The notes below the pieces were generated by a model. The model worked only from the letters and a program-made list of their open reading frames with translations. It ran no database searches and was not told the DNA's origin. A stretch of 64,000 bases of DNA from Trypanosoma brucei. Its lineage: Eukaryota. The stretch is from the NCBI GenBank assembly GCA_000002445.1, contig AE017150.2, forward strand, positions 288,001 through 352,000, read 5' to 3'. The position numbers were made by a program, and so were the translations under genes. Within the stretch, counting starts at the first letter, position 1; every line of letters starts with the position of its first letter. Of this stretch, positions 16,238 through 56,769 are shown piece after piece.

Positions 16238-17553
16238 CCGAAGTCGCGCAGCAAATCACGGGTTTACCGCTCACGGTGACTCACGTGGTGGAGGAGCAGA
16301 ACCCCCCCCCCGAAGTAGGAAGTGAGTGTTGTTTCAGTAGTGCCACAAGTGATAGGCACGACAGACCGATATTATATTCATTATTTAAACTAATGCTACT
16401 GGGTTAAAGAAAAAGGGAGGTAGGAGAAAGAGATTGAGAGGTGCATTGAAACTCCCGCAGGAAACCAGCCACTGGAAACACCAGGAGGTCAGAGGTGCGC
16501 TGCCACATGCAAGGCGAAGGAACCTGCGCAGATGGGGAAGGAAATAACGAGGCAACACACAATCGAACTTGATCACAGTCCTAAGTGAAAAAAAAACAAA
16601 AAAGCTCGCGTACTTTTTAACACAGTTACCACAACCGTAACAGCCGTTGTTAACTTCCTGAGAATGCCCTTATCCCTGTTCAATTTGGCCACAATCCATG
16701 ATGGTGATGGGCTGACGTGTGGCACCTGACTGGCTGCCGTTGGTTTCAACCTTCTCAATGACTTCGTATCCCTTCGTTACTTGTCCAAAAACAACATGTT
16801 TCCCATCCAACCAGGGAGTTGCAGCTGTGCAGATGAAGAATTGCGATCCATTTGTGTTGCGGCCTGCATTTGCCATGGAGAGCGTCCCGGGACCAAAGTG
16901 CTTCCCAGCGCGGCCCGCGAAGGACTCATCGGGAAATTTCAATCCGTATATTGACTCTCCACCCGTACCGTTACCGCTCGTGAAGTCTCCTCCCTGACAC
17001 ATGAACTGAGGGATGACGCGATGGAACTTGCTTCCCTTGTACGACAATGCCTTGCCAGATCGTCCCAGGCCCTTTTCACCTGTACATAATGCACGGAAAT
17101 TCTCCGCCGTTTTCGGTACCACATCCTTGAAGAGCTCCATTTCTACCCTTCCAGCCTTCTGGGAGCCAATGGAAATATCAAAATACACAAGTGGGTTGCT
17201 TGGATTGACAGGATAGAACGGTATCTTCCTCTGAGCTGCAAAAAAGGTGCGCGACAACATGTGTGCGGCAGGAACTAATTCTACAGCAGTGAACTTATGG
17301 GTTGTCCTTTGACCGGATGACTTGAATGAAGGAGCAACGAAAGCGCAAATATATGTACTTTTCTTTGGGGGGGGGGGGGTGGCAGTTAGTCTCGCACAAC
17401 AGTTAGCACCCGATTCCAACGCAAGTATTGACATAAACACGAGAAGGTAAACCCTTCGCGTGGCAACGCCGGTGCACAAACACTGGAAATGCATTTAACA
17501 AAAGCCGAGGGCAACCACAAGGTAACGATGCTGCTACCTCGCAGTGTAAAGGA
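16238..17553. repeat. Left arm of a roughly 1.3 kb inverted repeat carrying the cyclophilin gene and its flanks
   Basis: This arm is the reverse complement of 27413-28714 and is near-identical. The embedded ORFs are identical. The only differences I saw are G/C homopolymer lengths. Confidence 0.9.
16670..17260 (-). CDS. Cyclophilin-type peptidyl-prolyl cis-trans isomerase, 196 aa with an N-terminal extension relative to CypA
   Basis: Cyclophilin signature motifs are present: [48 protein letters not shown] and [10 protein letters not shown]. The ORF track extends this copy to 274 aa (to 17494), but only because a G13 tract fuses it to an upstream frame. The Met at 17258-17260 matches the start of the other copy. 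Confidence 0.85.
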
Positions 17554-18670: not shown

Positions 18671-19603
18671 CTAAATTTGCACAGCGACAAGAATCGACAC
18701 CAGACGGCTCAATTCGGTAAGTGTACCACAATCATAGACGGTATGGTTATTTCCTAGAAGGAACTGCACGGTCGGACCAGCTGTCGCTTCTTCTAACCCT
18801 AACTCAAGTCCACGTGGGATGCCTTGCGGCTTGCTTTCCACTTCTTGCACGGTTTGGCCAGTTGCCTCCTCAACAACAACCTCCAGCTCACGTAGCTTCA
18901 AGGTTGCAGCAACAAAGGAAGACCGCCAGTGTTTTTCAGAAACAGTACAAGGCATCGTGGAGTAACCATCGATCTTGCACTTCGAGGCAGCAGCTTCGTA
19001 GCTCTGTTTGCTTCTGTAACTGTTACCATCTGCCCCTTTTGATGCAGTGGGCTTCACTTCGTCCCACATTCGCACGAGGTTGTTCATATCACGGGATGAG
19101 GGTCCACGTGTGCTGTTGGCGCCCGACTCGACAGTAGCATCGCAAGTAATCTCCTCCTTTAATTTGTGGTCAGGTGGTTCAATAGGAGATACGCTCCTGT
19201 CACAATTTTGGCTGAATGGAAGGTGATGGTTTTCATCAGGATTCCTGCAGTGAGTACTCAATACTGTGCTCAAACCCCTCGCACTTTTCGCTGCTTCTGA
19301 CTTTACTTCCTCGGCCAATTCCATTGCTCTCCTTCCTAGTGATTTGTTGCCCTCAACCATTTTGGAGAGTTGATCGACTCTCTCCTGAACCTTTTCGATG
19401 TGCTCCTTGAGACGGCACAATGCTCTTGCAGCTGGGAGTTTAAGGTCATTGCGATACCTATATCCAGTGTCGGCTGCCGGCTGCTGGTCATCTAAAGCCA
19501 TCACGGCCATTGTGAGGCACAGTTTAACAAAAGCGGGAACCACTAACGCGGCTCCGTACCCCAACGTGTTGAGTATTTCTCTGCTATCAGAAGGTGATGC
19601 CAT
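18671..19603 (-). CDS. Hypothetical protein, 310 aa, with one predicted N-proximal hydrophobic segment
   Basis: This is the longest ORF in the region. Its non-repetitive composition resembles the neighbouring genes. Its orientation fits the leftward unit, pointing away from the strand-switch region. I recognise no domain. Confidence 0.5.
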   Translation of the reverse strand: MASPSDSREILNTLGYGAALVVPAFVKLCLTMAVMALDDQQPAADTGYRYRNDLKLPAARALCRLKEHIEKVQERVDQLSKMVEGNKSLGRRAMELAEEVKSEAAKSARGLSTVLSTHCRNPDENHHLPFSQNCDRSVSPIEPPDHKLKEEITCDATVESGANSTRGPSSRDMNNLVRMWDEVKPTASKGADGNSYRSKQSYEAAASKCKIDGYSTMPCTVSEKHWRSSFVAATLKLRELEVVVEEATGQTVQEVESKPQGIPRGLELGLEEATAGPTVQFLLGNNHTVYDCGTLTELSRLVSILVAVQI

Positions 19604-25600: not shown

Positions 25601-27688
25601 AGAATGACACGCGCACATTCTTCTGAAGCAGAAGCTTCAGTGGCAAGTTGGTTTCCATCCCCCAATGATAGAATGGGGCGCCCTCCGAAGACACACTGCT
25701 GTTTTTTTAAACAGTATGCCGATCTAAGCGCGCACTGCAGGTACATGATGTGCTGAATAAAGGTTCAAGTTTCATTAGAAAAAAAGATCAATACTAGCAA
25801 AAAAAGTGGCTTCAGCAACGCTGACAACTATGATGTTTTAGAAAGCAGCGGCATGGTCGGTGAAACGGACTACAGCGCACGACACGTAGATGCGTGGAAA
25901 AGGTAAGACCGGAAATTAGTCGTTTTCTGTTAAAACACCCCCCTTTTGTGTGTTAGCAGCGGACGCAAAACCATCTATTCGGGTGCGAGACGTAGTGAGC
26001 CGACAAACAGGTTTCCACTCGGTATGCCCCAAGAGCAGGATTTTTTTTTCGATTTCTTACAAGAAACTCCCACAATGAGACATGCCGCGTGCCGTTAGCT
26101 GCTGATAAGAATTGTATTAATCCCGATTAGAATTCTGGATCTGCTGTATGAGAGTCCGAATCGTGTTCTCCAGTATCTCACGTGTTAATGAGAGAGAGAT
26201 TTGTATACCGGAACCCTATGAATATATGTGTGAATGTGTATGTGTGTATTAATGTGCTACAGCAGTGTACAAACCTATGGAAGTCTCATGGTGAAAATGT
26301 GAACGGACAAGAACAGACACCGGTGGTGTTGTTGCTGCTTCCTGCATCAATACATCTTTGACTTGACCTAACAGGAGACGGACACTGGAAAGTTGGAGCA
26401 TGCTGTGGAATCGTAAGGGGCTTTGCACCGCAGCGGAAGAACACATGAAAGGGTCCGATGTATTATATTTCATACAAAAACCTACGGATTTTTTTTGGAG
26501 GATATGCTGTGACACCCTTTCTAAGGTGAGGAGGAGGAGGAAGTAGTAGCAACAAGCGGCACAACACCAGCACGCGCAGGAACCAGTTATCACTCATTTT
26601 TATGTATTATTACTTGCGTATGACCGCACTGACCAGCCGCTGAGGAAAGACTGTTGCAAAGTGTTCGATAACTTTGGTTTCCTTGTGAGGTGAATGAGAC
26701 ATTATTTGCTTTGCCTACCATTCGAAAGCAAAATAATGTTTAGGTGAGTGTATGCATGCACCGTGGCATCCCAGCTTCTGATATCGTCTCCTTGCCTATC
26801 TGTACCAAACGTCGACGCACGTGAAACCACCGCTGAAGGGGGATACGGGTGATCTACATTAAGGTGATGATGAAACGACTCTCCCCCCGTGCAGTTGCTG
26901 TTCTCGGGGAGTGGCGCTGGTAATGTATTCGATAGAATCTATTTATCAGAAACCGATGCGTTGCCAACCATAAACACTCAGCGCTCCCCCAAAAAGAGGG
27001 AGTGAAGTCGGCAAGAATCTCAGTGTTGTTGCCTTGGGGTGAAGCCATTAGAATAATCAACCCTAACCCTCATGCTCTCCAAATCTGGGGGATGAGGTGT
27101 GTGGTTGAAAAGGGATTCTAGCTGACTGGATGCACAAAGTCATGTTGTTCCACCAAATGTAACGAACACACGCGCACTCGTTCATTTATTTGCTAACAGC
27201 ATCTAATAGGTCTTTTAGTACATACAAAGTCTTCAGGCAGTTCGATTTAGACATATATGTACATGTTGCGCACTTACCAGTTTGTAAAGAGTGGGCTGCC
27301 ACCAATTTTGAAAGATTGTTGACTCTTAAAACCAAAGACTGGGAAGTGTTGTTCCACTACTTGACAAGTCTGACACCGCACTCGTAGGACGATAGTGTCT
27401 TTTTTAACACTGCGAGGTAGCAGCATCGTTACCTTGTGGTTGCCCTCGGCTTTTGTTAAATGCATTTCCAGTGTTTGTGCACCGGCGTTGCCACGCGAAG
27501 GGTTTACCTTCTCGTGTTTATGTCAATACTTGCGTTGGAATCGGGTGCTAACTGTTGTGCGAGACTAACTGCCACCCCCCCCAAAGAAAAGTACATATAT
27601 TTGCGCTTTCGTTGCTCCTTCATTCAAGTCATCCGGTCAAAGGACAACCCATAAGTTCACTGCTGTAGAATTAGTTCCTACCGCACAC
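19604..27688. promoter_or_regulatory. Divergent strand-switch region, a putative bidirectional Pol II transcription start zone of about 8 kb with no convincing ORF
   Basis: Genes to the left are on the - strand and genes to the right are on the + strand. Only short overlapping ORFs lie in between. In kinetoplastids such divergent strand-switch regions are the sites where polycistronic transcription starts. Confidence 0.5.
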
Positions 27689-28714
27689 ATGTTGTCGCGC
27701 ACCTTTTTTGCAGCTCAGAGGAAGATACCGTTCTATCCTGTCAATCCAAGCAACCCACTTGTGTATTTTGATATTTCCATTGGCTCCCAGAAGGCTGGAA
27801 GGGTAGAAATGGAGCTCTTCAAGGATGTGGTACCGAAAACGGCGGAGAATTTCCGTGCATTATGTACAGGTGAAAAGGGCCTGGGACGATCTGGCAAGGC
27901 ATTGTCGTACAAGGGAAGCAAGTTCCATCGCGTCATCCCTCAGTTCATGTGTCAGGGAGGAGACTTCACGAGCGGTAACGGTACGGGTGGAGAGTCAATA
28001 TACGGATTGAAATTTCCCGATGAGTCCTTCGCGGGCCGCGCTGGGAAGCACTTTGGTCCCGGGACGCTCTCCATGGCAAATGCAGGCCGCAACACAAATG
28101 GATCGCAATTCTTCATCTGCACAGCTGCAACTCCCTGGTTGGATGGGAAACATGTTGTTTTTGGACAAGTAACGAAGGGATACGAAGTCATTGAGAAGGT
28201 TGAAACCAACGGCAGCCAGTCAGGTGCCACACGTCAGCCCATCACCATCATGGATTGTGGCCAAATTGAACAGGGATAAGGGCATTCTCAGGAAGTTAAC
28301 AACGGCTGTTACGGTTGTGGTAACTGTGTTAAAAAGTACGCGAGCTTTTTTGTTTTTTTTTCACTTAGGACTGTGATCAAGTTCGATTGTGTGTTGCCTC
28401 GTTATTTCCTTCCCCATCTGCGCAGGTTCCTTCGCCTTGCATGTGGCAGCGCACCTCTGACCTCCTGGTGTTTCCAGTGGCTGGTTTCCTGCGGGAGTTT
28501 CAATGCACCTCTCAATCTCTTTCTCCTACCTCCCTTTTTCTTTAACCCAGTAGCATTAGTTTAAATAATGAATATAATATCGGTCTGTCGTGCCTATCAC
28601 TTGTGGCACTACTGAAACAACACTCACTTCCTACTTCGGGGGGGGGGGGGTTCTGCTCCTCCACCACGTGAGTCACCGTGAGCGGTAAACCCGTAATTTG
28701 CTGCGCGACTTCGG
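27413..28714. repeat. Right arm of the inverted repeat
   Basis: This arm is the reverse complement of 16238-17553. Confidence 0.9.
27689..28279 (+). CDS. Cyclophilin-type peptidyl-prolyl cis-trans isomerase, 196 aa, inverted duplicate
   Basis: The protein is identical to the minus-strand copy. The cyclophilin motifs are as listed for that copy. Confidence 0.9.
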
Positions 28715-29224
28715 TGTGTGGTTTCGGTGCGTTAACATGTAACAGTAACATGCTAGTGAGTTAGAGTCGGAGGATACCCATTCCTTTGCTTACACATGGA
28801 TGACACGTTGTGGGGAAAGTTAGGCATGCATTCGTGGTAGGATTACGTCAGTCACTTCTTCCTGCAGTAAAGCTGTAGTCCCCGGAGAAAAGGGGTACGT
28901 ATTGTTTGGGGGTGCGTTTGTGTGTCATTCCGTGAGTTGGGGCGATGCAGTTGTGCGGTCTTGCAGTCAATACTGGTTTGTTGAGGTTTGCCCTCCTCAT
29001 GAATTGTTGTTTTGTATTCTGTTTACAGTTGACGACTGCAGGCCAGCCGTTTGTTGATGGCATGCGCACTACCCAAATGGGGGTACAACTGAGAATTGCT
29101 GCTGCAGCGTCTCACTTTAACGCTGGTGTTGCCTGACCTTATCGACCGCGTTAATACCTTTGTTTTTCTTTTACAACCTACTGCACCACAAGTTTAGTTT
29201 GCGAAGTGTTTCTTTCTACGAGTT

Positions 29225-31513
29225 ATGCTTGTCGGGGTGCTTGTTTTGTACATCCTGTGCGCACCGCTCGCTGCTGTCGGAAGCATTGCAAAGTACAGTA
29301 AGACTGTCGTGACCAAAAGGCGGCTGAGAGGCGACGATGACACGTGGACGCGATATAAACCCACACCACCAGGGGCGCAACGTCTATTTGATAGTTTAGA
29401 TGAAAATACGCCCCTTCCCAAACTTCCCATTAAAACTCCGTTCTTCAGTTACGACAGTGTCGAATGGTACGTTTCTCCTTATGGGTTCCTCACCCTCACG
29501 GCGGTTCCCATGTGCAACTCGTTCTGCAGGGAGGGTTTGGATTCACCACTCACTGGCAGCTATCGGTTTGCCCGAAGGAATATTTCTGAGGGCGGTGACT
29601 GGCCGTTAATTGGGCTATTTGTTGCTGACCTTGATGTAACGAATTTGGCAGGGGATGCAGGCGTATACTATTACACACTGGATGGTGAAGAAAACCCCAC
29701 GAAGGTGATCGTGGAATATAGAGACATCCCCGTCCTGAATTGCCATGCTGACGGCAACGAACTACTGACCGCACAGGTTGAAATTTCAACCGATGGAGTT
29801 ATTGTAGCACGCTATGAAAAGGTTCCAAGATGCCGAGGCTCCGTGGGCATCGTGTTGTCGAAGAGCCAGCGAGATATCGTACAGTTTAGGCAACGCGAAA
29901 TGGGTCTCGTCGCGGTACAGTATACTCCCGTTCCTGATACCTGTGGAGAGCGGAACGAAGGATCATGTTCTGAGACGTGTACGTGGTGTGCAGCAACAAG
30001 TAGCTGCATGTCGGCGCCACTTGCAGGTGAAATATGCCCGAGAGTGTCTTCGAATAGTTCGTTAAATCATAACCACTATTACACCGTTACCGCAAAGACG
30101 GAATCAGGGAGCACCCAAGGAGGCCAGTCAGGGGGTGAGCCACTGGATACCACCGGTAGCAGTGTGAAAGTTCCCCTTCGTTTTGAGTTTCCTTTCTTCA
30201 CAAAGGGTGTGGGGAAGCACAAAATAAATAGTGTGTATATACTCTCATCTGGAGTTGTTTCGCTACTCTCCAACAAGCAAGACTGTGGTCCACTGAAGAA
30301 TGTGTGCAGCAACGGAAATTACAGCTATGCCATCATGCCATTTGTTACGTCTCAAACATGGGGCAATTCAAACGCGGTGGTTTTGAGAAGAGAAAGCGAA
30401 TCCATTACCATTTTCATAACGACTAGATCCTTCGGTGAGCTATACCACACGTACACGTATTGGTTGCGCCTTGAAAAGAGCGGTGCTATCACGTTTCACT
30501 ATCTGGCGTCTACTGTAGCAGGGTCGAGAGAAGCTTTGAGTGGGTTTTTCGCGTTCCCCCCACCGATGATTGGAGTCGCTCGTTACGGTATGGGCGATAA
30601 TGCAAGCATGATCGTTCCTTCCGCAGTGGCACGTCCAGGCACCACTGTGCGCTTCGAACCCCGGAATGAGCACGACGACTGTGGAATCAACGGGAGGTAT
30701 GAAAATGGAGGGTGTGTGTGTTCAGAAGGATTCCAAGGTAACTTCTGCGATGATTGCACTTCAGGTCATTATGGACCCAGGTGTACCAAATGCCCCAACT
30801 GCCAGAATGGGGGTGTATGCGACAGTGGCCGAGGTGGATCGGGCCGTTGCAAGTGCGCATCCTCTTTTGGTGGGAAAAACTGCGAAAAGAATTGCGGGAA
30901 CAAGGGTTGCGTGAACTGCAATTCTGTGGGGGGCTACTGTGACTGCGGCGTCTGCCGCTGCCATGAGGATAGTGGATGGAGTGGTCCGGACTGTACCACC
31001 TTTGAAGATCCGTGCCTGAAATTCTCCCTTCAGGGTTGCGATGCCTGCATGAGTCAAGAAGAACACGGCTGTGCGTTTTGTGCTGATGGCGCGTGCTATT
31101 CTACGAAATTGGAGGGAACCTCGCTTAGCCATGCGTGTTCTTACAAGGCTGAGACCCGTGATGCTCCAATCTGTCAAAAAGTCCTGCAGATTGCGCAGTC
31201 CGGCACTGACTTTGGCTATATAATATTTTTCGTCTTATGCTTGAGCGCTATTTCACTCGCTGTCATCATATCCCTTCTATCGCGCTACCTGATGTATGCG
31301 CGGAGAGTGGTTAATGTCCACGTTGCCGCAGCTGCGGGAGGCGCTCCCGACTACGTTCCTGTTCGACGGGAGCGAGAAGTTGTGCAGGCTGGTTTTGTAC
31401 CAGTGAACTTACCCAAGGGTAAAAAGTACGTTTTGGGTGTCCCACTGAAGCAGATATCGCTTCACAAACTGTATAAGGAACAGCAGAATGAAGGGTTCCC
31501 TAACAAGGAATGA
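29225..31513 (+). CDS. Type I membrane protein with laminin-type EGF-like cysteine-rich repeats (paralogue 1), 762 aa
   Basis: An N-terminal signal peptide (MLVGVLVLYILCAPLAAVGS) is followed by a roughly 450-aa ectodomain. That leads into clustered Cys modules (CxCxxGFxGxxCDDC, HYGPRC, CKC..GKNC) and a PSI-like CDAC...CAFC..GAC segment. A TM helix (FGYIIFFVLCLSAISLAVIISLL) and a 90-aa cytoplasmic tail follow. Confidence 0.8.
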   Translation: MLVGVLVLYILCAPLAAVGSIAKYSKTVVTKRRLRGDDDTWTRYKPTPPGAQRLFDSLDENTPLPKLPIKTPFFSYDSVEWYVSPYGFLTLTAVPMCNSFCREGLDSPLTGSYRFARRNISEGGDWPLIGLFVADLDVTNLAGDAGVYYYTLDGEENPTKVIVEYRDIPVLNCHADGNELLTAQVEISTDGVIVARYEKVPRCRGSVGIVLSKSQRDIVQFRQREMGLVAVQYTPVPDTCGERNEGSCSETCTWCAATSSCMSAPLAGEICPRVSSNSSLNHNHYYTVTAKTESGSTQGGQSGGEPLDTTGSSVKVPLRFEFPFFTKGVGKHKINSVYILSSGVVSLLSNKQDCGPLKNVCSNGNYSYAIMPFVTSQTWGNSNAVVLRRESESITIFITTRSFGELYHTYTYWLRLEKSGAITFHYLASTVAGSREALSGFFAFPPPMIGVARYGMGDNASMIVPSAVARPGTTVRFEPRNEHDDCGINGRYENGGCVCSEGFQGNFCDDCTSGHYGPRCTKCPNCQNGGVCDSGRGGSGRCKCASSFGGKNCEKNCGNKGCVNCNSVGGYCDCGVCRCHEDSGWSGPDCTTFEDPCLKFSLQGCDACMSQEEHGCAFCADGACYSTKLEGTSLSHACSYKAETRDAPICQKVLQIAQSGTDFGYIIFFVLCLSAISLAVIISLLSRYLMYARRVVNVHVAAAAGGAPDYVPVRREREVVQAGFVPVNLPKGKKYVLGVPLKQISLHKLYKEQQNEGFPNKE

Positions 31514-33286
31514 CATCCACCCCTGGGTGCGCCGTTCCCAGAAGATGCTGAGGGCAGCGGTTCCCCACCAAAATCAGCTATATAAATTTCCCGCTGTGTA
31601 AGCGGCGCCCTCCCTATTGCCATATATTAAATTAATCTTGCTTTTGCGATGTGACAGCAACAGCTGATGTCGCGTGAGGCCCCAGCGTGGAAGAGAGAGT
31701 TGAACAACTTATCACTTAGAGGGGTGCCTTAGGTCTTGGAATCGGCGTATGGGATCGGCTAGCATATAAAAAGCCACTTGAATACCCTGTGTGTGTGTTT
31801 GGTGGTTATCACTTGGAGTCGTTGCTATGACCCCGGCGTTGGAAGTAGTTGCCTTCTTCCCGTTTGTATTATTGGCATAATGTTGTATATAGCGTTAAGG
31901 AAGATAGTACAGAAGCGACTGTGGTCTGAGTGGTGTCCGATGTAACTTTGGACGTCCGTGGTACCGACCCTTGCACACATCCAGTTGTCTGCGTATAACT
32001 GTGTGTCAAAGGGTTGCGGCACCCGGCTGCGCCTTGCTCCTGTGCACTTTCCGTAGTTTTATTCGGTTTGTCAGGAAAAATGATTGACGGAGGGGCTGCA
32101 CCGCGGCCGGATAACCATCACATTCAATGTGAGTCTCCCACACAACTTCTCAGGACAACTCAGAAGGCCCATTCCATAAGGTGGCATTTGTCTAAGATCA
32201 GCGCGTATAACCGAATCACAGGAGGTTATGAATCGAGTGATTTTGAGTCACTTGGTTTTCTGGTCACGGTCGTGACGTCAGCTTGTTCTGCTCTGGCGGT
32301 CTTAGGAAATGAACTAGCCCTAAAGCGTCGTGCCTGCTGTGGGATGCATATCGCACCCCCGCAAGTTCCCACGCCGCAGATACGTTAAGATCTATTTTAC
32401 GAGGGTATTCAGTTTGCTGAGCGGTGGTGGCTACTGCGATTGTGGCCAAGTCTGCATGACCTCCGGGGAGCTTCGATAACAGCAGGACCGTGCCTGGCGG
32501 ACAGCGTCTCGAGCACCTTCTGAAGGGGCCTTGTCAAATTCCTAAAACAGGGATATGTGAGTTGGGTTGTTTCTTATTAATGTGGCGGCCGCCGTTTCTT
32601 GCCGTGACAGGGTTTTGATGGGATTCTGTTTTCCGATGGAAAGGAGCATTACCGTTGCTGGCTCATAGGTGCAGTGACTCACCAAAACGAATAGGTACGA
32701 CTAAAGGAGGCGAAGCGGGAAGGCTGAATGTCGTTGACATTTTTTTGAGTTCCAGTACTTGGTGGCGTCAGAGTCTTTGAGTTTCCCCGTTTGGAGGAAA
32801 ATGTGAGCACTGTGGCAGTGTGTCAAGTTAGGTGGCGAATTTTCTTAGCATTTCCGACTCCTTTGTGTGTAAATGATGCTTTAGGTGTGGAAAGGAGTGT
32901 ATGCCTCTTCAACGCTCGGTGTTGTTGGCGACAACATTGGAGGTTGAACTGCAAGGGTCATACATACAGTGAAGCTTTGCCACCAATGGAGCCATCAGTG
33001 CCGCAGTGCCGCGCTGTTTGCCCGCACCCCCTTGGGTATGAGGTTTGTGCAAAAGTGCAGGTGGATGCGGCTCGCGTAAGAAAAAAACAGCCATGCACCT
33101 TTCCTATCAGACGAAAACAAAGGGTGTAACCTCAGATACCGTGGATAGAGTAATATGAAGGGGAACTCACGAGGCTGCGTTAGTACTTTTGTTGCATGGT
33201 ACCTTCTACCGTAACCCCAACTTTGTCTTGCTGTGATTTCTCCGCTTCTAATCCTGACAAGGCCCGTACATTGAAATATAGGAAAT

Positions 33287-33655
33287 ATGGACAGCAACGT
33301 CACTTACGCCGCACAACTTGAGAGCGCTGCAGAGGAGGTAGCCGAGGCGAAACAGTACCTCATAAAACTTGACAGGAGGCAGCACCAACTGAAGGAGGCG
33401 AGTCGAGCCCTAAAGAAAACACCAGTGTTGGGCGACGTTTGGCTGCTGTGCAGTGGGGGCGTCTTTGTGCGTTCTGAGTTGAAATACGAAGACACTCTGC
33501 GTTACTTGTCGTGGAAAATGGGCGCTGGTGAGCGAGACATTGAGGATTGTCGTGACGCTCTTAAGAGGAAGGTGGCATACTTGGCGGAGCTGGAGGGCCC
33601 CGATAACGCAATAGCAAAGCTGTACGAGGGCTTTGAACTGACCCCAGTGAATTAG
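33287..33655 (+). CDS. Small coiled-coil protein, 122 aa, possibly prefoldin-like or PDRG1-like
   Basis: This is a clean ORF in the rightward unit. The heptad-rich N and C termini flank a short beta-hairpin-like centre, DVWLLCSGGVFVR, the architecture of prefoldin beta-type subunits. The similarity is judged by eye only. Confidence 0.45.
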   Translation: MDSNVTYAAQLESAAEEVAEAKQYLIKLDRRQHQLKEASRALKKTPVLGDVWLLCSGGVFVRSELKYEDTLRYLSWKMGAGERDIEDCRDALKRKVAYLAELEGPDNAIAKLYEGFELTPVN

Positions 33656-35380: not shown

Positions 35381-36696
35381 CGTTTTTTTTTGATCATTGC
35401 CCAGAATTTGCTACTCTGGCGGTGAGTTTAGTTTGACACATTTTTATTTTAGCACTGTGGGTGGTAGTCTGGTCCTTTCTGTTGGTACTATTACTGGGAG
35501 GGGGAAGGGGGCTAGCGGTGATGAACATTGGGTTCTATATTTATCGACCCTATCAAGCAATACGCGTAATGCGGCACAAGAGCAAGTCGTTAGCCACACT
35601 GTTTGTTTTCTCCACTATTTCGCGGACGTCGCAGGTCGCCGGCAGCAGCTTTTTTTTTTTTTGGCTTCTGGTGGATATTACCGCTTGCGCGGTGTCCTTT
35701 GTGTTTTTTTCGTTGATGGTTTTCGACGCTGTTAGCTGCGGTGCTGCAGGTGCTACCTGTCTTTCCCCCACCTGAACCATTACACATCCAGTGGTTTATG
35801 AGCGCTTTACTTGGGTGCATTTGTACACGTTAGTTCGGGCTCATGTGTGAGTTAGGTGGGAATATTCTTTGCATTCAAGAACCCACACAACCCGTTTGAG
35901 ACTTTGACCCCGAAATTCTTGTTTAACGTCGTTTCGTGACATGTTCTCTTTGGCAGCTCGTAGCTTGAGGATTTCATTGCGTATCGGAGGAGATGTCCCC
36001 GTGGTTCCCATAATTTCACTTTTGTCAAAGAAAAGGTGTTTCACCACCTAAAACATCATATTTGCCATTATTGGATCTGCCTCAGCGTTGGTATGGTTTC
36101 AATACCGCAACCCCACGTGAGGAGACGAGATTTCTGGGCGGTGATTTTATTGATGCCAGGGCTGGCCCGCCTCCTCGACCCGCTCCGTTTCTACCAGATT
36201 GGTAAAGGCTAGAAGTGGTTTTATTATAAGGGGGACAGTATCAGGGGTTTTTCTTTTCTTTTACAAACAGCATATAACTACACTATGACCGTTATAGATG
36301 TCACTTTAACCCGTCGAGCCGCAACATAAGTGGTCCAGTGGGAGTTTGTTAGCCTCTTTGCACGATTGCTTTTGTGGTGAGAGTAGCGAATTCGTTGCAC
36401 ACCTTCTGCCCCCTCAAATGTTTTTGTAAAAGTGCGTAGGAACGTATAGTAGGATCAGTCAGTTCTTGTCTTCACTAATAATTATCCATGTGAGTTATCA
36501 CCTTATGTGTGTATTCTGTGTTTAGAGAGCTTGCAAAAGGTCCACGTTTTCTTGGATCAGACCATATGGCCGAGTTGAACGGCCCTTTTTATATCAGGGT
36601 TTCGTGTTTAAATACCCCTGTTTGTGCTGTAGGCATTAGTGCCGTCGCTTGACGGCATCCCCTAGTGCAATTATTGTAAATGCTGTTTACCATTTC

Positions 36697-36790
36697 TCAG
36701 AGAGAACGACAGAACCAAAGTCAAGATAGTCCCTTTACTTTTACTCACTCATCTGACCGTGAGTGATAAAGTTTCCCGTGTCTCTATTGT
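36697..36790 (+). pseudogene. Orphan 3' fragment of an EGF-like membrane protein gene, encoding ...QRERQNQSQDSPFTFTHSSDRE*
   Basis: This stretch is identical to the 3' end of CDS 37391-39799 but is preceded by unrelated sequence. Confidence 0.7.
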
Positions 36791-37312
36791 GCAATGAATC
36801 CTCGCAATGCTTCACGGCATGATTTGTGGGAGTCTCACCCGAAATGTTGCGACCTGTGAGTGGCCCCCGTAATCTGCGGTTTTCTGTTCAACGGGAGTGT
36901 AACTAATCCCAACGTTGTGTGGTTTTATTTATTTTTTACATCTCTTTTTAACCCTCCGCTGCTTTCTGCAGAAGATGCACTCGGGACTCGTTTAGTTTGG
37001 TCTAACCACCTTTCTTTCTCTTTTTTACTTTGTTCCCCTTTACTTACTTTTGTTTGATTGTATCGGCTACAGATGGTGACACCTCCTCTCAATGTATTTA
37101 GCGGGAGTGCGGTGCTACCTTCTTTTTGATGATGACTGGTACTTACACACATGGTAGCTGGCCATAGGCTTGTTGTTAGGGTGTAATTTCCATGACGAGC
37201 GGCTATTGTTAAATTCACCTTCCTGTCCATTTTTTTTCTCATCAATTCACTCAACTGTTGGCTTTCTTTCCTTTTTGCAAAATCCGTTGTGTGTACAGAC
37301 TCACTCCCACAC

Positions 37313-37382
37313 TTCTTATGTTCTTTCCCTTTTTCTTTCCTTATTTTCTCTTATTTTCCCTTGTTATCTTTTGCATTTTAAG
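37313..37382 (+). promoter_or_regulatory. Polypyrimidine tract plus AG, a putative trans-splice acceptor for the downstream EGF-like gene
   Basis: A roughly 65-nt C/T-rich run (ttctttccctttttctttccttattttctcttattttcccttgttatcttttgc) is followed by AG at 37381-37382, 9 nt before the ATG. Confidence 0.5.
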
Positions 37383-37390
37383 TTATCGAA

Positions 37391-39799
37391 ATGAGTATTC
37401 TGTGGCTTACTTGTATCGTTGTAGTTGCAACAAATGTTGCTTCTGGTCGTGCTGCTATAGTGGGATATGAGACTGAGATTGTGCGTGCAGGTGATTTTAG
37501 CAAAGGTTCGTACCATTGGGCAAAATACATCGAAGGAACCGGACCGAATACCCGTCGCATATCTTCCTTTCGTGATGGAATTGTACACCATGAGGAACTC
37601 GGCTTCATGTCACCATTTTTTAGCAGTGATAACATAAGTTGGCATGTTTCACCATTTGGATTCCTAACGTCTCTATCGTTTCCCCCATGTTCATCATCTT
37701 GTGTGAGAACCACACTTCGCTCACTGCGTAAACAAAGTGAGCAACCCAAGAGCAGTGACCGTTTCTTGCCAATGATCGGAGTGTACGTTGCAGATTTTAG
37801 TCCTTTCACTAAAGTGTTTACTTTTAAAACGCGGTACCCAAACGATGAACGCGCAGAGAGTGGGGGATGCCACATAGTGGAATATAGAAGTATGCTGATG
37901 CATGGTTGCAGCTCCAGCGAAAAGAGTAGACTGAAAGCACAGGTGGAGGTTTGCTCTGACGGATTGATAGTGATGCGTTACAGAGAGGTGCCGAAGTGTG
38001 GTCCTGTTTCTGTGGGCATTGCATTGTCTGCAAGAGAGCAAAACTTTACATTTATCGACTCAGACCTTGAGGATATTGTTGCCATACGTTACAGCCCCGT
38101 CCACGACAACTGCAGTAAGTTCAGTACTAACCGAAGTTGCAATGATATGCACGGAAGGTGTAAGTGGCATGAGACTACGGACGAATGCGTGGATGAATCA
38201 GTCGCAAAAAGTAGATCTCCCCGCCGGACGCGCAGTGAATCAATACCAGCATCTAATGAATACTACGATCTAAAAGTCTCGCGCAGTTCCCGCAATGTAG
38301 ACTACGACGACCTCCAGAAGCACTTCAAATTGCTTACAGTGGGAAAAGTTGTTGGACTTGACCTAGGGTTTAGTTTCCCATTCTTTGCTAGGGATCAGCC
38401 GAATCTCCGCACGAATAGGGTGTACATACACTCATCTGGTGTAATTTCACTTTTTTCTGAGAAGCAAAACTGCAAGCCAGTCCGAAACATGTGCCCTAAT
38501 GGAGATTACAGCTTTGCCATTATGCCGTTTGTCACACCGCAGACTTGGGCGAGTAGAACGTCGGTTGAATACAGTCCACTTGGAAAACGGGTAAAGGGGG
38601 ATCCATTCTGTAATGATTCCCACTGTCTGGAGGGAATTGCCATTCGTGTATCAAGCCGGACGTACGACTTGTCCCTTCACAAATATCAACATATTGTATA
38701 CCTTGACCAAAGTGGCGCCATCGAGTTTCGATACAGTGAAGGTATTGAAACCTTTTTAGTGTTGACTGGTAAGGAGTTTTCTGCTGTTCCGCCACCATAC
38801 ATTGGAATATCTCGGTCCGGTATAAATGATAAAAACACCATTATTGTTCCTCCATCCCTTATAGGTGAGGACAAGCAGGTTCGTTTTGACACCTCACAGA
38901 GCTGCAGCCACTGTGGAGCCAATGGACGATGCGTCTCTCCAACAGGGAAATGTGAATGTTTTGAAGGGCATATTGGGAAGTTCTGTGAGGAGTGCTCTCC
39001 AGGCCATTACGGTCCGAGTTGTATTAAATGCCGGAAGTGCGAGAACGGAGGGACTTGTGACGACGGTAGAAAAGGATCTGGGGGGTGCAAATGCATGGGA
39101 ATGTTCAGTGGAGAGAATTGCACCACGAAGTGCGCCAATTCGTTTGACTGCAGTAATTGCAACCTCCATGGGGGGTACTGCGAATGCGGCACTTGCCATT
39201 GCTATGGAACGAATGGCTGGAGTGGAGAAAACTGCAGCGTTTTTCAAGACCCCTGCCAGCGACTGTCGTTTGGGGGTTGTAAGGTGTGCCTAAACGACAC
39301 GGCCAACGAATGTGCCTTCTGCAGCGATTGGATGTGTTATTCGAAGCGCTTGAAAGGGACAATGAATGAATACCATTGCCCCGGTAATATATTCGATGAG
39401 GACCCGTCACTTTGCTTACCCCTGCCGCAGCCGGATGCGCCAATGAAGGAAAACGGCATTGCTATACCTCTTGGTCTTTCATTGTGCGCTCTTTTTTTGG
39501 CCTGCGTTACGTTGATTCTACTCCGATTTGTCCTTTTGACGAGGGGAATCGTTAACTTTCTTGATGTGGGTGCTGCGGGAGGTGCCCCAAGTCATGTTCC
39601 CGCACGCCGCGAGAGAGAAGTGGTACAATTTACGTTCATACCGCGTGCAGCAGCGGAAGGAAAGAAGTATGTACTTGGGATTCCGCTGAAGCAGATACCA
39701 TTGCAAAAACTATACAATTATCAGGAGGCTCAGAGAGAACGACAGAACCAAAGTCAAGATAGTCCCTTTACTTTTACTCACTCATCTGACCGTGAGTGA
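37391..39799 (+). CDS. Type I membrane protein with laminin-type EGF-like cysteine-rich repeats (paralogue 2), 802 aa
   Basis: The architecture matches paralogue 1: a signal peptide, a conserved N-domain (WHVSPFGFL, VYIHSSGVISLFSEKQNC, AIMPFVTPQTW), EGF/PSI-like Cys modules, a TM helix and a conserved tail (GGAPSHVPARREREVVQ...GKKYVLGIPLKQIPLQKLY). Overall identity to paralogue 1 is about 35-40%. Confidence 0.85.
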   Translation: MSILWLTCIVVVATNVASGRAAIVGYETEIVRAGDFSKGSYHWAKYIEGTGPNTRRISSFRDGIVHHEELGFMSPFFSSDNISWHVSPFGFLTSLSFPPCSSSCVRTTLRSLRKQSEQPKSSDRFLPMIGVYVADFSPFTKVFTFKTRYPNDERAESGGCHIVEYRSMLMHGCSSSEKSRLKAQVEVCSDGLIVMRYREVPKCGPVSVGIALSAREQNFTFIDSDLEDIVAIRYSPVHDNCSKFSTNRSCNDMHGRCKWHETTDECVDESVAKSRSPRRTRSESIPASNEYYDLKVSRSSRNVDYDDLQKHFKLLTVGKVVGLDLGFSFPFFARDQPNLRTNRVYIHSSGVISLFSEKQNCKPVRNMCPNGDYSFAIMPFVTPQTWASRTSVEYSPLGKRVKGDPFCNDSHCLEGIAIRVSSRTYDLSLHKYQHIVYLDQSGAIEFRYSEGIETFLVLTGKEFSAVPPPYIGISRSGINDKNTIIVPPSLIGEDKQVRFDTSQSCSHCGANGRCVSPTGKCECFEGHIGKFCEECSPGHYGPSCIKCRKCENGGTCDDGRKGSGGCKCMGMFSGENCTTKCANSFDCSNCNLHGGYCECGTCHCYGTNGWSGENCSVFQDPCQRLSFGGCKVCLNDTANECAFCSDWMCYSKRLKGTMNEYHCPGNIFDEDPSLCLPLPQPDAPMKENGIAIPLGLSLCALFLACVTLILLRFVLLTRGIVNFLDVGAAGGAPSHVPARREREVVQFTFIPRAAAEGKKYVLGIPLKQIPLQKLYNYQEAQRERQNQSQDSPFTFTHSSDRE

Positions 39800-40687
39800 T
39801 AAAGTTTCCCGTGTCTCTTTTATTGTGCAATGAATCCTCGCAATGCTTCACGGCATGATTTGTGGGAGTCTCAGCCGAAATGTTGCGACCTGTGAGTGGC
39901 CCCCGTAATCTGCGGTTTTCTGTTCAACGGGAGTGTAACTAATCCCAACGTTGTGTGGTTTTATTTATTTTTTACATCTCTTTTTAACCCTCCGCTGCTT
40001 TCTGCAGAAGATGCACTCGGGACTCGTTTAGTTTGGTCTAACCACCTTTCTTTCTCTTTTTTACTTTGTTCCCCTTTACTTACTTTTGTTTGATTGTATC
40101 GGCTACAGATGGTGACACCTCCTCTCAATGTATTTAGCGGGAGTGCGGTGCTACCTTCTTTTTGATGATGACTGGTACTTACACACATGGTAGCTGGCCA
40201 TAGGCTTGTTGTTAGGGTGTAATTTCCATGACGAGCGGCTATTGTTAAATTCACCTTCCTGTCCATTTTTTTTCTCATCAATTCACTCAACTGTTGGCTT
40301 TCTTTCCTTTTTGCAAAATCCGTTGTGTGTACAGACTCACTCCCACACTTCTTATGTTCTTTCCCTTTTTCTTTCCTTATTTTCTCTTATTTTCCCTTGT
40401 TATCTTTTGCATTTTAAGTTATCGAAATGAATATTCTGTGGCTTACTTGTATCGTTGTAGTTGCAACAAATGTTGCTTCTGGTCGTGCTGCTATAGTGGG
40501 ATATGAGACTGAGATTGTGCGTGCAGGTGATGTTAGCAAAGGTTCGTACCATTGGGCAAAATACATCGAAGGAACCGGACCGAATACCCGTCGCATATCT
40601 TCCTTTCGTGATGGAATTGTACACCATGAGGAACTCGGCTTCATGTCACCATTTTTTAGCAGTGATAACATAAGTTGGCATGTGACT
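39731..40687 (+). repeat. Downstream copy of the roughly 955-bp direct repeat
   Basis: See the entry for 36697-37651. Confidence 0.9.
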
Positions 40688-40705
40688 ACTCCCTTCAGTG
40701 AATGA
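40427..40705 (+). pseudogene. Truncated 5' fragment (92 codons) of an EGF-like membrane protein gene
   Basis: This copies the first about 87 codons of 37391-39799 with three substitutions (S2N, F36V, and divergence after WHV). Homology ends at about 40687 and a stop follows. Confidence 0.75.
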
Positions 40706-40957
40706 CATTGACGGCACGGGCTGATAAAGGTAATTTGACGTAATCTATGTAATATGAGGAGGGCATCTATACATATGTGGTTCCGTTTCAGGAAGGAGGG
40801 AAGATGAGGGGAGGGGGCGCTATGTTTGCTGATATATAATTGTTTTGTTGATAACTTTCCTTATGTCATTGTTTTTTTTTTCTCATGTTGAGAGTAGTAT
40901 TTGTTTTTTTTTTGTTTTTAAATATATTTATTACTTTTGTAACCTTGTCAAGTGTAG

Positions 40958-42346
40958 TTGGGCCGACCCATTGGTGCGATGCGTCGTCACCGCGTGGCGG
41001 TGGTTTCGGACTTTTTCTACCCGGGGTTTGGTGGTGTGGAGGTGCACATTTATAGTTTGGGGCAGTGTCTTATGCGTAGGGGCCACAAGGTTATTGTCAT
41101 TACTAGGGCTTACGGTGACACATGTGGTGTGCGGTATTTGACGAATGGAATGAAGGTGTATTATTTACCTCTGATGGCTGTTAAGCTTCCTGCGGGATCT
41201 GTTACGCTTCCAACCATGTATTTGACTTTCGCAACAATGCGGTCTATATTCATCCGAGAGCGCATTACAGTTGTTCACGGGCACCAAAACACGTCGAACC
41301 TCTGCCATGAGGCACTATTTCATGCCGGTACGCTGGGTCTTAAAACGTGTTTTACCGACCACTCGCTGTTTGGTTTTGCGGACGTGTCATCGATTCACAT
41401 CAACAAAGTGTGCGAGTGGAGTTTGCGCAACGTTGACCAGGTTATTTGTGTGAGTAACACCTCGAGAGAAAACACGGTGCTACGGGCGAAAATCGATCCG
41501 CAACGTGTCAGCGTTATACCAAACGCGACTGATTGTTCCTTTTTTACACCGCCGGATGATATGAAGTACAAATCATGGGCGTCGAAGGTTGAGAATGAGG
41601 GGCTAACGATTGTTGTGATTGGTCGCTTAGTTTACCGTAAGGGTTCTGACCTTTTTGTGGATGTGATTCCTGAAATATGCAAACGGCATCCGAACATAAG
41701 GTGGATTGTTGGGGGTGATGGTCCCCGTAGGTCGCAGTTTCAACAGATGATTGAACGGCATGACTTGATGGATCGTGTGAAGATGTTAGGTTCGCTACCT
41801 CACTCTGGGGTGCGTAATGTGCTGATACAGGGGCAAATATTTCTGAATTGCAGCTTAACTGAAGCTTTTTGTATCGCACTGATTGAGGCCGCATCATGTG
41901 GTTTGTTATGTGTTTCCACTCGTGTTGGTGGTGTGCCTGAAGTCCTGCCTCCCAACATGCTCTTGCTTGCGGAACCCGATCCATCTTCCATCATTACAAC
42001 ACTGGAGGAAGCTATTGCCAGTGTTCCATATATTTCTCCGTGGGAGCTGCACGACAATGTGAGGAGGTTCTATAGGTGGGATTGGGTTGCAGAGCGTACA
42101 GAGAGAGTGTATGATAAGATTATGTGCACCAAATCACCGTCTCTGTATGAAAGACTAATGAACTATGCATCGGTGGGCTGCGTGTACGGTGTCATTTGTT
42201 GGTTGTTGTGTATTGGTGACTGGTTGATGCTAACTTTTCTGGAGTTTTGGTTTCCGTCGGAGTTGATTGATATTGCACCAGATTTTCCACTGGAGTTGTA
42301 CTCTCGTAACCGGGAGAAGCTTCAAGTTGTGGGAAGCCCATCCTGA
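40958..42346 (+). CDS. GPI3: Phosphatidylinositol N-acetylglucosaminyltransferase catalytic subunit (PIG-A/GPI3), the first step of GPI anchor synthesis
   Basis: The GT4 PIG-A signature VVSDFFYPGFGGVEVHIYSLGQCLMRRGHKVIVIT is present near the N-terminus. There is a C-terminal hydrophobic region. The start codon could instead be the internal Met at codon 8. Confidence 0.85.
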   Translation: MGRPIGAMRRHRVAVVSDFFYPGFGGVEVHIYSLGQCLMRRGHKVIVITRAYGDTCGVRYLTNGMKVYYLPLMAVKLPAGSVTLPTMYLTFATMRSIFIRERITVVHGHQNTSNLCHEALFHAGTLGLKTCFTDHSLFGFADVSSIHINKVCEWSLRNVDQVICVSNTSRENTVLRAKIDPQRVSVIPNATDCSFFTPPDDMKYKSWASKVENEGLTIVVIGRLVYRKGSDLFVDVIPEICKRHPNIRWIVGGDGPRRSQFQQMIERHDLMDRVKMLGSLPHSGVRNVLIQGQIFLNCSLTEAFCIALIEAASCGLLCVSTRVGGVPEVLPPNMLLLAEPDPSSIITTLEEAIASVPYISPWELHDNVRRFYRWDWVAERTERVYDKIMCTKSPSLYERLMNYASVGCVYGVICWLLCIGDWLMLTFLEFWFPSELIDIAPDFPLELYSRNREKLQVVGSPS

Positions 42347-53673: not shown

Positions 53674-54542
53674 TGCCATTAGCAAAGTCTGATTTGGTAT
53701 ATAATTATACACATTTATATAACTATATGTTTCATGTCCGTGAGAAACGGCCAGAGGCAGATAAAAAGAGGGAGAGAGAGAGAGAGAAAAAAAAAAAGGG
53801 AAAGAGAAGGGAAGAGGGATGTTGGAAGAAGGGTGAAAAATAAAAATAAAAATAAAGATGAAATAATAATAATAATAAAATACAACACAATACAATAAAA
53901 TGAAAAGGAGAGAAGAAAAGAAAGGGAAAAGAAAGGGAAAGGGAGCAATCAAAAGGCATTATTGATGGAAAGAGTGCGGTGGTTGAGTAAATGTTGTAGA
54001 TGAGTAAAGTTGTGTTACGCAAATGGAAGCAGAGCGTAGCTCTAAATGAAGGTAATTACAATAATAACGAAAGAGCACAGGCGATGTTTATGTTGTTTAC
54101 GGTCCTTTTTTTTCTTTTTTTTTTGTTTTGGTGCTTTAATAGTTTAGTGGTGTTTCCCACCCATGTTGGTGGTGTTTTTTTTTCTTTTTTTTCTTTTGTG
54201 TGTTTTTTTTTTTGGAGCAGGAGAGATCGGGTTGCAGCGGGGTCCCGGCAGAAGAAAAGGATAAAAAAGTAATCTTTTTTGTGCTTTTTTTTGTTTCCTT
54301 AAAACAAAAAAAAAAAGAAAGAGGAGAGAAAAAATTGAGAAAAAAAAATGAATGCGTTGCAAATGTATTTGTGGACAATATGTATACCTTGAAGGAACAT
54401 AGATATATTTGTTCTTATATGTATGCATGTATATGTTTGTGGTGTATCTCTGTATTTCTGTATTTCTGTATTTGTTTGTTTGTTCGTCTGTTTGTGCTGT
54501 TTATTTAAGTGCGCAAAGTGCCGGTGATGAAGTGAAGATTAT

Positions 54543-54546
<4 letters not shown>

Positions 54547-54586
<40 letters not shown>
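54547..54586. repeat. (TG)n microsatellite, about 20 units
   Basis: Read directly from the sequence. It lies within the 3.4 kb low-complexity intergenic/UTR region 53674-57062. Confidence 0.9.
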
Positions 54587-54589
<3 letters not shown>

Positions 54590-56769
54590 ATCAAAATGTG
54601 AGTACGTGCAATTTGTAAGCAAAAATATATAAATTTCAATAAATTAATGAATTAAATAATATATATATATATATATTTCCTTTTTCCAATGTCTACATGC
54701 ACTGTGGGGAGAAGGACGGAAGTGAAGGCAACGTGAGAAACCGCTTAGGCTTAAGGCCTGACTCTGTTCCCACCTTTTTTTTTCTGTTTCCAATTGCATG
54801 GTAACCTCTTTTATTTTTATTTATTTTTATAGATATTTCTTTTTCTTACCTTTATTTCCTATATAGAGCGCACTTTCATCATTGATGGCACGATTTCTGG
54901 CCCATTTGATTAAAGTGAACAGAGAGAATAATAAGTAGTTTTTTTTCTCAATTTTTTTCTTCGTCTAATCTTTCTTTTTTTTTTTTGAAAAAGAAATTAT
55001 TTCGTGTACGTATGTTATTAAGTCAGTACGAAAAGTGATGACAGTGATATAATATCTCCCAACATCTCTGCATTTTAGTCTTTTTTTTTTCCTTTTGAGT
55101 TCATATCTTTACGAATTTATTTATTTATTATTGGATGACATGGTGTCGCAATTTTTTTCTTTTTTTTTTTCTTAAAGAAAAGGAGGTCGTGGCGAAATGT
55201 GCCAACTGAAAAAACAAAAAAAAAAAAGGGGAAAAAAACTGCGATGCTGAAGGAAGTTATGTGGAGGGGCTCGGCACTTGGGGGAGAGGAGTGATTTTTC
55301 TTTTTTTTTCTTTATTATTATTATTAATTTTGGATGATGTGTGAGGCAGGGGAAAAAGTGACGTGCGTACATTTTTGTCTTTTGTTTTCTTTTTTTTTTA
55401 AAAAAAAAACACAGCTCTGGTTATTATTAATATTATTAAAATAATGAAATAAGTTAGGTGGGATGAGTTAGGAGGGGGGGGAAAAAAAAGATAAAACTGA
55501 AGGATTTATTTGCTGCGTGTTTTCAGTTGTTTTGGTGGTGACCGGTCATCACTTTTGATTTTTTGATTTTCTTTTTGTTATTTAATTTAATTTATTTTGT
55601 TTCGTTTTGTTTTTGGTTGAATATTTGTGGAAAACTATGAGGTGATGAGAAAAAGAAGAATATGTAGTCTTATTGCGGAAGGTAGTTTTTTTTTTTCATT
55701 GTGTTTGTATGGATTTAAAAGAATATCAGGTAACAAAAGTTCACGTTAGGAAGAGATTAAAATTTTTTTTCTTTTTTTCTTTTTTCTTTTTCTAACTTAT
55801 ACCTTCACTGGTTTATTTGGTGAGTGAAGCATTTAGGCGGAGGAATAACTCCCTCGGGATGATTTTCCTCGATTTTTTTTTTTTGTAAGTTGTCCACACA
55901 AACACAAACACAAACACAAATACGTAAATGTACATATTTATATATTTATATATTTATATAATTATATATTTATATATTTGTATATTATTGGTGCGTATAA
56001 TTTTTATTATTTATTATTTTTGACCTCTCCGACGTGTTCAATGCGGATGTACTCAATTTTCTTCCCCCAATCGTTCACCCCAAAGCACAACAATAATGAT
56101 AATAATTATCTTTATCACCATCATCATTATAATAATAATATTATTATTATTATCATTAAAATGTTTTGTTGTTAATTATATTCACCTTATCTCATCTCAC
56201 CTGATACGCTCTTTAACATTATTATGACATAGAAAAGTGTAGCCACCTTTTTTTTTTTTTTTGAACCACTTGCTGTAGGTTTCATTGTCTCATTCTGTTG
56301 AGTGCAATATGTCCTTCTCATAAAGACACTTCATCAACTCTTCGAACTCTACTTCCTTTTTTTTCCCCTTTTTTCTTGTTATTCACTCACAGTTGTGGTT
56401 GTGCATTTACTTCCTTTTTTTTTTCCTTTAGGGCTCTCTTCTCCCCATTCCCTTCTTTTTTTTTTTCGGTTCCTCTTGTTTTAACCACAAATGTTACTTA
56501 TTTTCTCTTCTTTTGTGGTGCGAAACCTTATGGGAGGGAACTCTCTGAAGGGTATCTTAAAGAGAGCTGCTCTGCATATTTATATATCTTCAATAAATGA
56601 ATAAATATAGTTATATAATTATATAATTATATATATATATATATATATTTGTTTATTTATTGATGGATATTTTATATTGTGGCGGCATTCCTGCCATCGT
56701 GTAGGTTTTTTTTTGTTTTCCCCCCTTTCCCCTTCTTTTCCCTCTCATGTTCTTCCCTTCACATCTTGT

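Follow-up and report, generated by a model that had tools for sequence, protein, structure and literature searches.

In a 64,000-nucleotide stretch of Trypanosoma brucei DNA (GenBank AE017150.2, positions 288,001–352,000; the window), a gene for an EGF-like membrane protein is bracketed by two nearly identical direct repeats of about 955 bp. The gene product, of 802 residues, matches XP_951510/AAQ15634 (Trypanosoma brucei brucei TREU927, chromosome 2) without a single difference. The segment that includes both repeats, 36696–40683, is probably the residue of a head-to-tail tandem duplication of a surface protein gene of the ESP10 family that took place in the T. brucei (Trypanozoon) lineage. 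The duplicated gene would have expanded to at least three partial copies before truncation or contraction left one complete gene between two inter-copy junctions, with the outermost copies truncated where unrelated flanking DNA begins, on the left within the tail and on the right within the head.

The structure of the segment is directly visible in the reference. Self-BLAST of the window aligned 36696–37647 (repeat A1, 952 bp) with 39729–40683 (repeat A2, 955 bp) at 99.37% identity over 955 columns, with 3 mismatches, 1 gap and E = 0, bearing out the identity of about 99% and, in essence, the coordinates given in a preliminary description of this DNA. Base-by-base alignment places the differences at a TTT indel in a T-run (36784/5; 39818–39820) and at positions 36838 (C/G), 37395 (G/A, Ser2Asn), and 37496 (T/G, Phe36Val). 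The homology has sharp limits on the left (36695/36696 and 39728/39729) and on the right (37647/37648 and 40683/40684). Both copies lie on the plus strand with a start-to-start period of 3033–3036 bp, and 36696–40683 amounts to 1.31 copies of a 3033-bp unit. Each repeat comprises 71 bp of coding tail including the stop, a T-rich spacer of 624–627 bp with long polypyrimidine tracts, and 257 bp of head. The order of tail, intergenic region, and head described previously, with a head of about 260 bp, is retained, but the tail is shorter than the 95 bp or so reported. Both repeats thus constitute the inter-copy junction of a tandem duplication, in which a gene 3′ end is followed by a spacer and a gene 5′ end.

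In A1, an orphan 3′ tail (36696–36766, 71 bp including a TGA stop) has no gene body upstream and does not differ from 39729–39799; an in-frame TAA lies just upstream of it, inside the left flank. It is followed by the first intergenic copy (36767–37390, 624 bp, T 0.41), which has polypyrimidine tracts ahead of the ATG, and by the head of the intact gene. The body of the unit (37648–39728, 2081 bp) has no second match in the window by self-BLAST. A2 consists of the tail of the intact gene, the second intergenic copy (39800–40426), and an orphan head, which forms a 92-residue open reading frame (ORF; 40427–40705, plus strand) whose residues 1–86 are the N terminus of the gene and are followed by six unrelated residues and a stop. 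This head had been credited with three substitutions and a stop where homology ends; the stop and two substitutions inside the repeat are indeed present, but the third (Ser87Thr) falls outside the repeat, beyond the limit of homology, and the ORF stops 7 codons after that limit. The left flank (35381–36695), downstream of a 205-residue gene, showed no similarity to the duplicated unit or the gene by tblastn and blastn, and the right flank (40684–40978), which includes a polypyrimidine tract ahead of PIG-A/GPI3, showed none to the duplicated unit. The complete ORF of the unit is assembled once in TREU927, and a single body segment is found in the window and in each of the loci of T. b. gambiense DAL972 and T. 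equiperdum OVI; the assembled sequence does not hold two or more complete gene copies.

The intact gene (37391–39799, plus strand) encodes a predicted signal peptide, an EGF-like Cys-rich region, a transmembrane segment, and a conserved cytoplasmic motif. Pfam EGF matches of the 802-residue protein are only near threshold; 39 library representatives matched it at E < 1e-30, and the cytoplasmic motif aligns across the members. Judged by these similarities, the gene is a member of an ESP10-like EGF-domain membrane protein family of kinetoplastids. ESP10 itself, a surface-labeled and flagellar-pocket-associated protein, is encoded in the same window by an ORF of 762 residues (29225–31513; Tb927.2.1700) that is 37% identical to the repeat-flanked gene over 782 residues. 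It has the same domain order, including the REREVVQ...PLKQIPL..LY cytoplasmic tail, but sits 6 kb upstream and is without flanking repeats. The supplement of PMC4587319 records ESP10 as enriched in the surface-labeled proteome. A full-text literature search on the candidate identifiers Tb927.2.1720–1770 for the repeat-flanked gene returned no papers.

The same structure is present in three subspecies. Exact-protein look-ups of PIG-A and of the gene yielded DAL972, OVI, and one short Logan contig, and the DAL972 and OVI loci retrieved in this way were aligned to the window. The main scaffold of DAL972 contains the left flank, one repeat copy, and the right flank. A separate DAL972 contig (L003 9196–12953) corresponds to 36581–40338 of the window and comprises the whole of A1 and the body, preceded by 115 bp of the left flank and followed by the initial 610 bp of A2. 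In the OVI scaffold, the left flank and the first 32 bp of A1 are followed by 10 N, after which the sequence picks up again precisely at 37648, the first base of the body, and extends through A2 into the right flank. The junction of A2 with the right flank is therefore present in the DAL972 main scaffold and in the OVI scaffold, and both assemblies break or collapse exactly at the repeat. The 92-residue orphan-head ORF, a pseudogene in the DAL972 annotation, is identical in TREU927, DAL972, and T. equiperdum. The DAL972 contig with the intact gene has been placed ∼32 kb downstream of the true locus, which keeps only the orphan head in that assembly; the 955-bp repeat probably led to this misplacement through an error in scaffolding. 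In its assembled position (L003 9096–13053; chromosome 2 record 67613–90021), the contig lies between two 100-N gaps and beside retrotransposon (RVT_1) ORFs. The simpler reading of the DAL972 arrangement would be the classic signature of a two-copy repeat that was collapsed by the assembler, leaving the intervening segment stranded.

The duplication is absent from the outgroups. In T. brucei, the neighboring genes encode a DUF7881 protein, the 205-residue protein, PIG-A/GPI3 (40979–42346), the catalytic subunit of DNA polymerase delta, and an ISWI-type SNF2 ATPase, a set that agrees with an origin from TREU927 chromosome 2. A homologue search with the 205-residue neighbor returned Trypanozoon sequences only, and PIG-A was used in its place as the synteny anchor. 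The gene order in T. vivax is cyclophilin, a 121-residue gene, DUF7881, a 204-residue gene, a 784-residue EGF-like gene, PIG-A, a 114-residue gene, polymerase delta, and ISWI. The single EGF-like gene between the 204-residue gene and PIG-A shows no self-repeats and no remnants in its flanks, and its similarity to each of the two T. brucei paralogues is about the same (39%). On a T. congolense IL3000 contig, DUF7881 is followed after ∼2.7 kb by the N-terminal 388 residues of the syntenic orthologue, with identities of 40% to the repeat-flanked gene and 34% to ESP10. No upstream C-terminal fragment was found on this contig, which ends inside the gene and covers the upstream side only. The gene is thus single copy in T. 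vivax and, as seen from the upstream side, in T. congolense. In a more distant trypanosomatid, represented by a Logan contig with an 80% identical PIG-A, a 216-residue gene is followed directly by PIG-A. As judged from this synteny, the position of the gene is ancestral for African trypanosomes. Because the outgroups have a single copy whereas the junctions occur in three subspecies, these comparisons date the duplication to the T. brucei (Trypanozoon) lineage, between its separation from T. congolense and the emergence of the T. brucei subspecies. Comparison of T. brucei intergenic DNA with its counterparts in T. vivax and T. congolense gave alignments of low-complexity pyrimidine tracts or coding DNA only.

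Other members of the family occupy different positions. T. vivax has a gene at the position of the repeat-flanked gene but none at that of ESP10, which in T. brucei lies between cyclophilin and the 121-residue gene (L005 1464–2617 as compared with 27689–33655 of the window); either ESP10 was later added at a second site or it was lost from T. vivax. The closest non-salivarian homologue, from T. melophagium (L004 10001–12382, 40% identity), lies inside a cluster of receptor-type adenylate cyclase genes. It was dropped as a synteny outgroup because it is located among these genes and not at the PIG-A locus, and its location suggests that the family has moved between genomic contexts.

The two copies of the repeat appear to have changed together. 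At positions 37051, 37171, 37350, 37374, and 37579, every DAL972 copy has one base, and both TREU927 copies and OVI A2 have the other; the error-rich ends of the DAL972 contig were left out of this comparison. At 36838, A1 and A2 are distinguished in TREU927 and OVI, and the A1 base is found throughout in DAL972. Since the shared junctions predate the split of the subspecies and the lineage-specific changes are nevertheless found in both copies, the pattern points to homogenization of the repeats by gene conversion or unequal exchange, processes that are well documented, together with concerted evolution, for T. brucei arrays (PMC1855330; PMC2854126). For the same reasons, the suggestion that the array might be nascent appears unlikely, and the structure is better regarded as established. 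The two amino acid differences between the copies can also be polarized. Asn2 and Val36 are found in the TREU927 orphan head and in every available DAL972 and OVI copy, and Ser2 and Phe36 are private to the intact TREU927 gene in A1. With Asn2 and Val36 in all other copies, parsimony places both changes in the intact TREU927 gene rather than in the orphan head, so that it is the functional copy, and not the pseudogene, that would carry the derived non-synonymous states, including one in the signal peptide.

The number of gene copies that must have existed depends on the orphan tail, because a family-like tail requires parts of at least three copies. According to a very unlikely alternative, a partial-gene tandem duplication was followed by one deletion and no third copy ever existed. 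The unit 36696–39728, consisting of upstream non-coding DNA, the head, and the body, would have been duplicated; the first copy would read through the junction into former non-coding DNA, gaining a new C terminus of 23 residues, and the body of the second copy would have been lost later, together with the original tail, in a deletion. The left flank would then always have adjoined A1, and the orphan tail would never have been coding. Two novel junctions suffice for this scheme instead of three, a read-through of 23 codons is about the chance length before a stop, and 27 residues follow the conserved LY motif here as compared with 9–13 in most trypanosome homologues; the lengths of the upstream spacers would also match (2010 bp here and 1831 bp in T. 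vivax). However, under this scheme the 23 residues that follow Ala780 (QRERQNQSQDSPFTFTHSSDRE) should show no relation to the family. A match of QRER to family C termini, noticed by eye, was set aside because it needs a 3-residue gap that MAFFT did not place, and a test of a profile against a null was used instead. The profile was built from the C termini of 38 family members found in an exhaustive HMMER search, and the null comprised 3000 constructs in which the pre-boundary residues were joined to read-through translations of local intergenic DNA. The real C terminus scored 40.9 bits and the pre-boundary part alone scored 32.2 bits; the null mean was 31.3 bits (standard deviation 2.3). The post-boundary residues thus add 8.7 bits to the family profile, and only 0.33% of the null constructs reach the real score (p about 0.003). 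The composition of the first 8 residues alone differs in the same sense (p = 0.02). With A at 0.32 and T at 0.24, the tail also resembles coding DNA in base composition and departs from the T-rich spacer. On these measures the orphan tail was most likely once part of a real coding sequence. The profile test also supports the claim of the preliminary description that the tail-intergenic-head junction implies a head-to-tail array with at least three partial copies.

Derivation of the segment from such an array has difficulties of its own. The two truncated ends call for several rearrangements, namely one duplication junction and two illegitimate end junctions; the truncation of the end copies could have occurred by two deletions or by insertion of a 1.31-unit fragment. 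Searches of 35381–36695 and 40684–40978 with both paralogues by tblastn and sensitive blastn for decayed remains of the lost gene parts gave matches at chance level only. The ancestral flanks are not reconstructable, since outgroup intergenic DNA does not align. The evidence for homogenization draws on DAL972, a draft shotgun assembly in which the reads of the copies were possibly pooled, and 37051 and 37171 are the only sites for which one contig contains both copies. The copy number of any strain is known from assemblies alone. All these points weigh against the remnant of a tandem array, and the last of them bears also on the possibility, which we consider unlikely, that the reference has collapsed a longer array in which at least two full 3033-bp units lay between the same outer junctions and were merged as near-identical sequences. 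The failure of the DAL972 and OVI assemblies at exactly this repeat would be in keeping with a collapse, and the paper on the T. b. gambiense genome, where it comments on the point, considers that assembled repeat numbers can be arbitrary (PMC2854126). On the other hand, the two TREU927 copies are resolved by three substitutions and an indel, excess depth is not indicated by the data at hand, and the locus is not in that paper's table of copy number differences between T. b. brucei and T. b. gambiense. The opposite error, a misjoin or a duplicated consensus in TREU927 chromosome 2 with no genomic counterpart, is scarcely credible. Misassembly at repeats of such a size is well known, but nothing specific speaks for it here, and the assemblies of two other subspecies contain both outer junctions as well as both transitions between repeat and body, with an identical orphan-head ORF in all three subspecies, which excludes an artifact confined to the reference. 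The concern that the repeats might be an artifact of assembly, raised in the preliminary description, is thereby answered.

Direct repeats of ∼1 kb that bracket a gene are a classic substrate for homologous recombination or single-strand annealing in trypanosomatids. The 955-bp repeats would provide ample homology for deletion of the gene or for gain of a copy: intrachromosomal exchange would lead to a one-repeat product, and unequal sister exchange would lead to two complete genes. The deletion product foreseen previously (left flank, one repeat, and right flank) is matched exactly by the DAL972 main scaffold, although collapse is the simpler reading of that scaffold. That the locus acts as a cassette of variable copy number in natural T. 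brucei populations, with the one-repeat form of DAL972 as a real deletion allele that arose by exchange between the repeats and is heterozygous with an intact allele, seems to us doubtful; if it were true, the dosage or loss of this surface protein would differ between strains or haplotypes. The locus may in any case be prone to loss or gain of a surface protein gene by recombination, a point to consider when the flanking sequences are chosen as targeting arms for knock-out or tagging.

The repeats are likely to have consequences for RNA processing. Trypanosomes couple polyadenylation of a gene's transcript to trans-splicing of the gene downstream. The A1 spacer would accordingly serve as the splice acceptor region of the intact gene, and the A2 spacer together with the orphan head would supply its normal signals for 3′-end formation, so that the gene would have array-type signals on both sides. 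The orphan head would be processed into a short separate mRNA ending ahead of the PIG-A polypyrimidine tract (40860–40920). Chimeric or spliced transcripts from the orphan head, suggested previously as something to look for, are not expected in a trans-splicing organism, in which a short, separately processed mRNA is likelier. The practical value of the locus is modest and lies chiefly in annotation and in the quality of assemblies: the 92-residue “T. brucei spp.-specific protein” is a truncated gene head and not a new gene, and the repeat explains the misplacement of the gene in the DAL972 assembly and the gap in that of T. equiperdum. An Rfam scan of the whole window gave no matches, and a scan for bacterial promoters and terminators, which is irrelevant for a trypanosome, gave counts at background.

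Several other features of the window were noted. An 8-kb array of a 29-bp AT-rich unit (AAGCATGTCATTACGTGTTTTATGTGCAA) occupies 2384–10393, with 276.6 copies, 92% matches, and a GC content of about 0.33. AT-rich repeat arrays of several kilobases have been described at putative T. brucei centromeres (PMC3035458), and the 29-bp array may be a candidate for the centromeric array of chromosome 2. A 1.3-kb inverted repeat (16238–17550 and 27403–28714) is 99.2% identical, and each arm carries a gene for a cyclophilin-type peptidyl-prolyl isomerase (16670–17494, minus strand; 27689–28279, plus strand). The ∼9.85 kb between the arms contains an ISG65/75-like ORF (18671–19603, minus strand) and few long ORFs, and the bracketed region could be a strand-switch or rearranged region. 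An AT-rich spacer at 54001–56000 (GC 0.31), between a gene for an EF-hand protein kinase and one for a TPR protein, has a strong skew of G over C and several short microsatellites.

T. brucei has many tandem arrays that show mosaics and concerted evolution, and their assembled copy numbers can be arbitrary (Jackson 2007, PMC1855330; PMC2854126). The present locus resembles them in its head-to-tail units of gene plus intergenic region within a polycistronic transcription unit, in its near-identical copies with what may be signs of gene conversion, in its derivation from a cell-surface family, and in a copy number that assemblers handle poorly. It differs from them in that the arrays considered in those surveys have several complete copies, whereas only one complete gene (1.31 units) is assembled here, and in that both end copies are cut inside coding sequence; it is not among the entries of the tables consulted in PMC1855330 and PMC2854126. 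With repeat-mediated deletion and amplification in trypanosomatids it shares the configuration of the deletion product, seen in the DAL972 main scaffold; the difference is that here the configuration is known from sequence alone and is more simply accounted for by assembly collapse. The feature is of a known kind in trypanosome genomes, ordinary and unsurprising to specialists, and it adds one small datable example to the known tandem duplication and concerted evolution of trypanosome surface protein genes.

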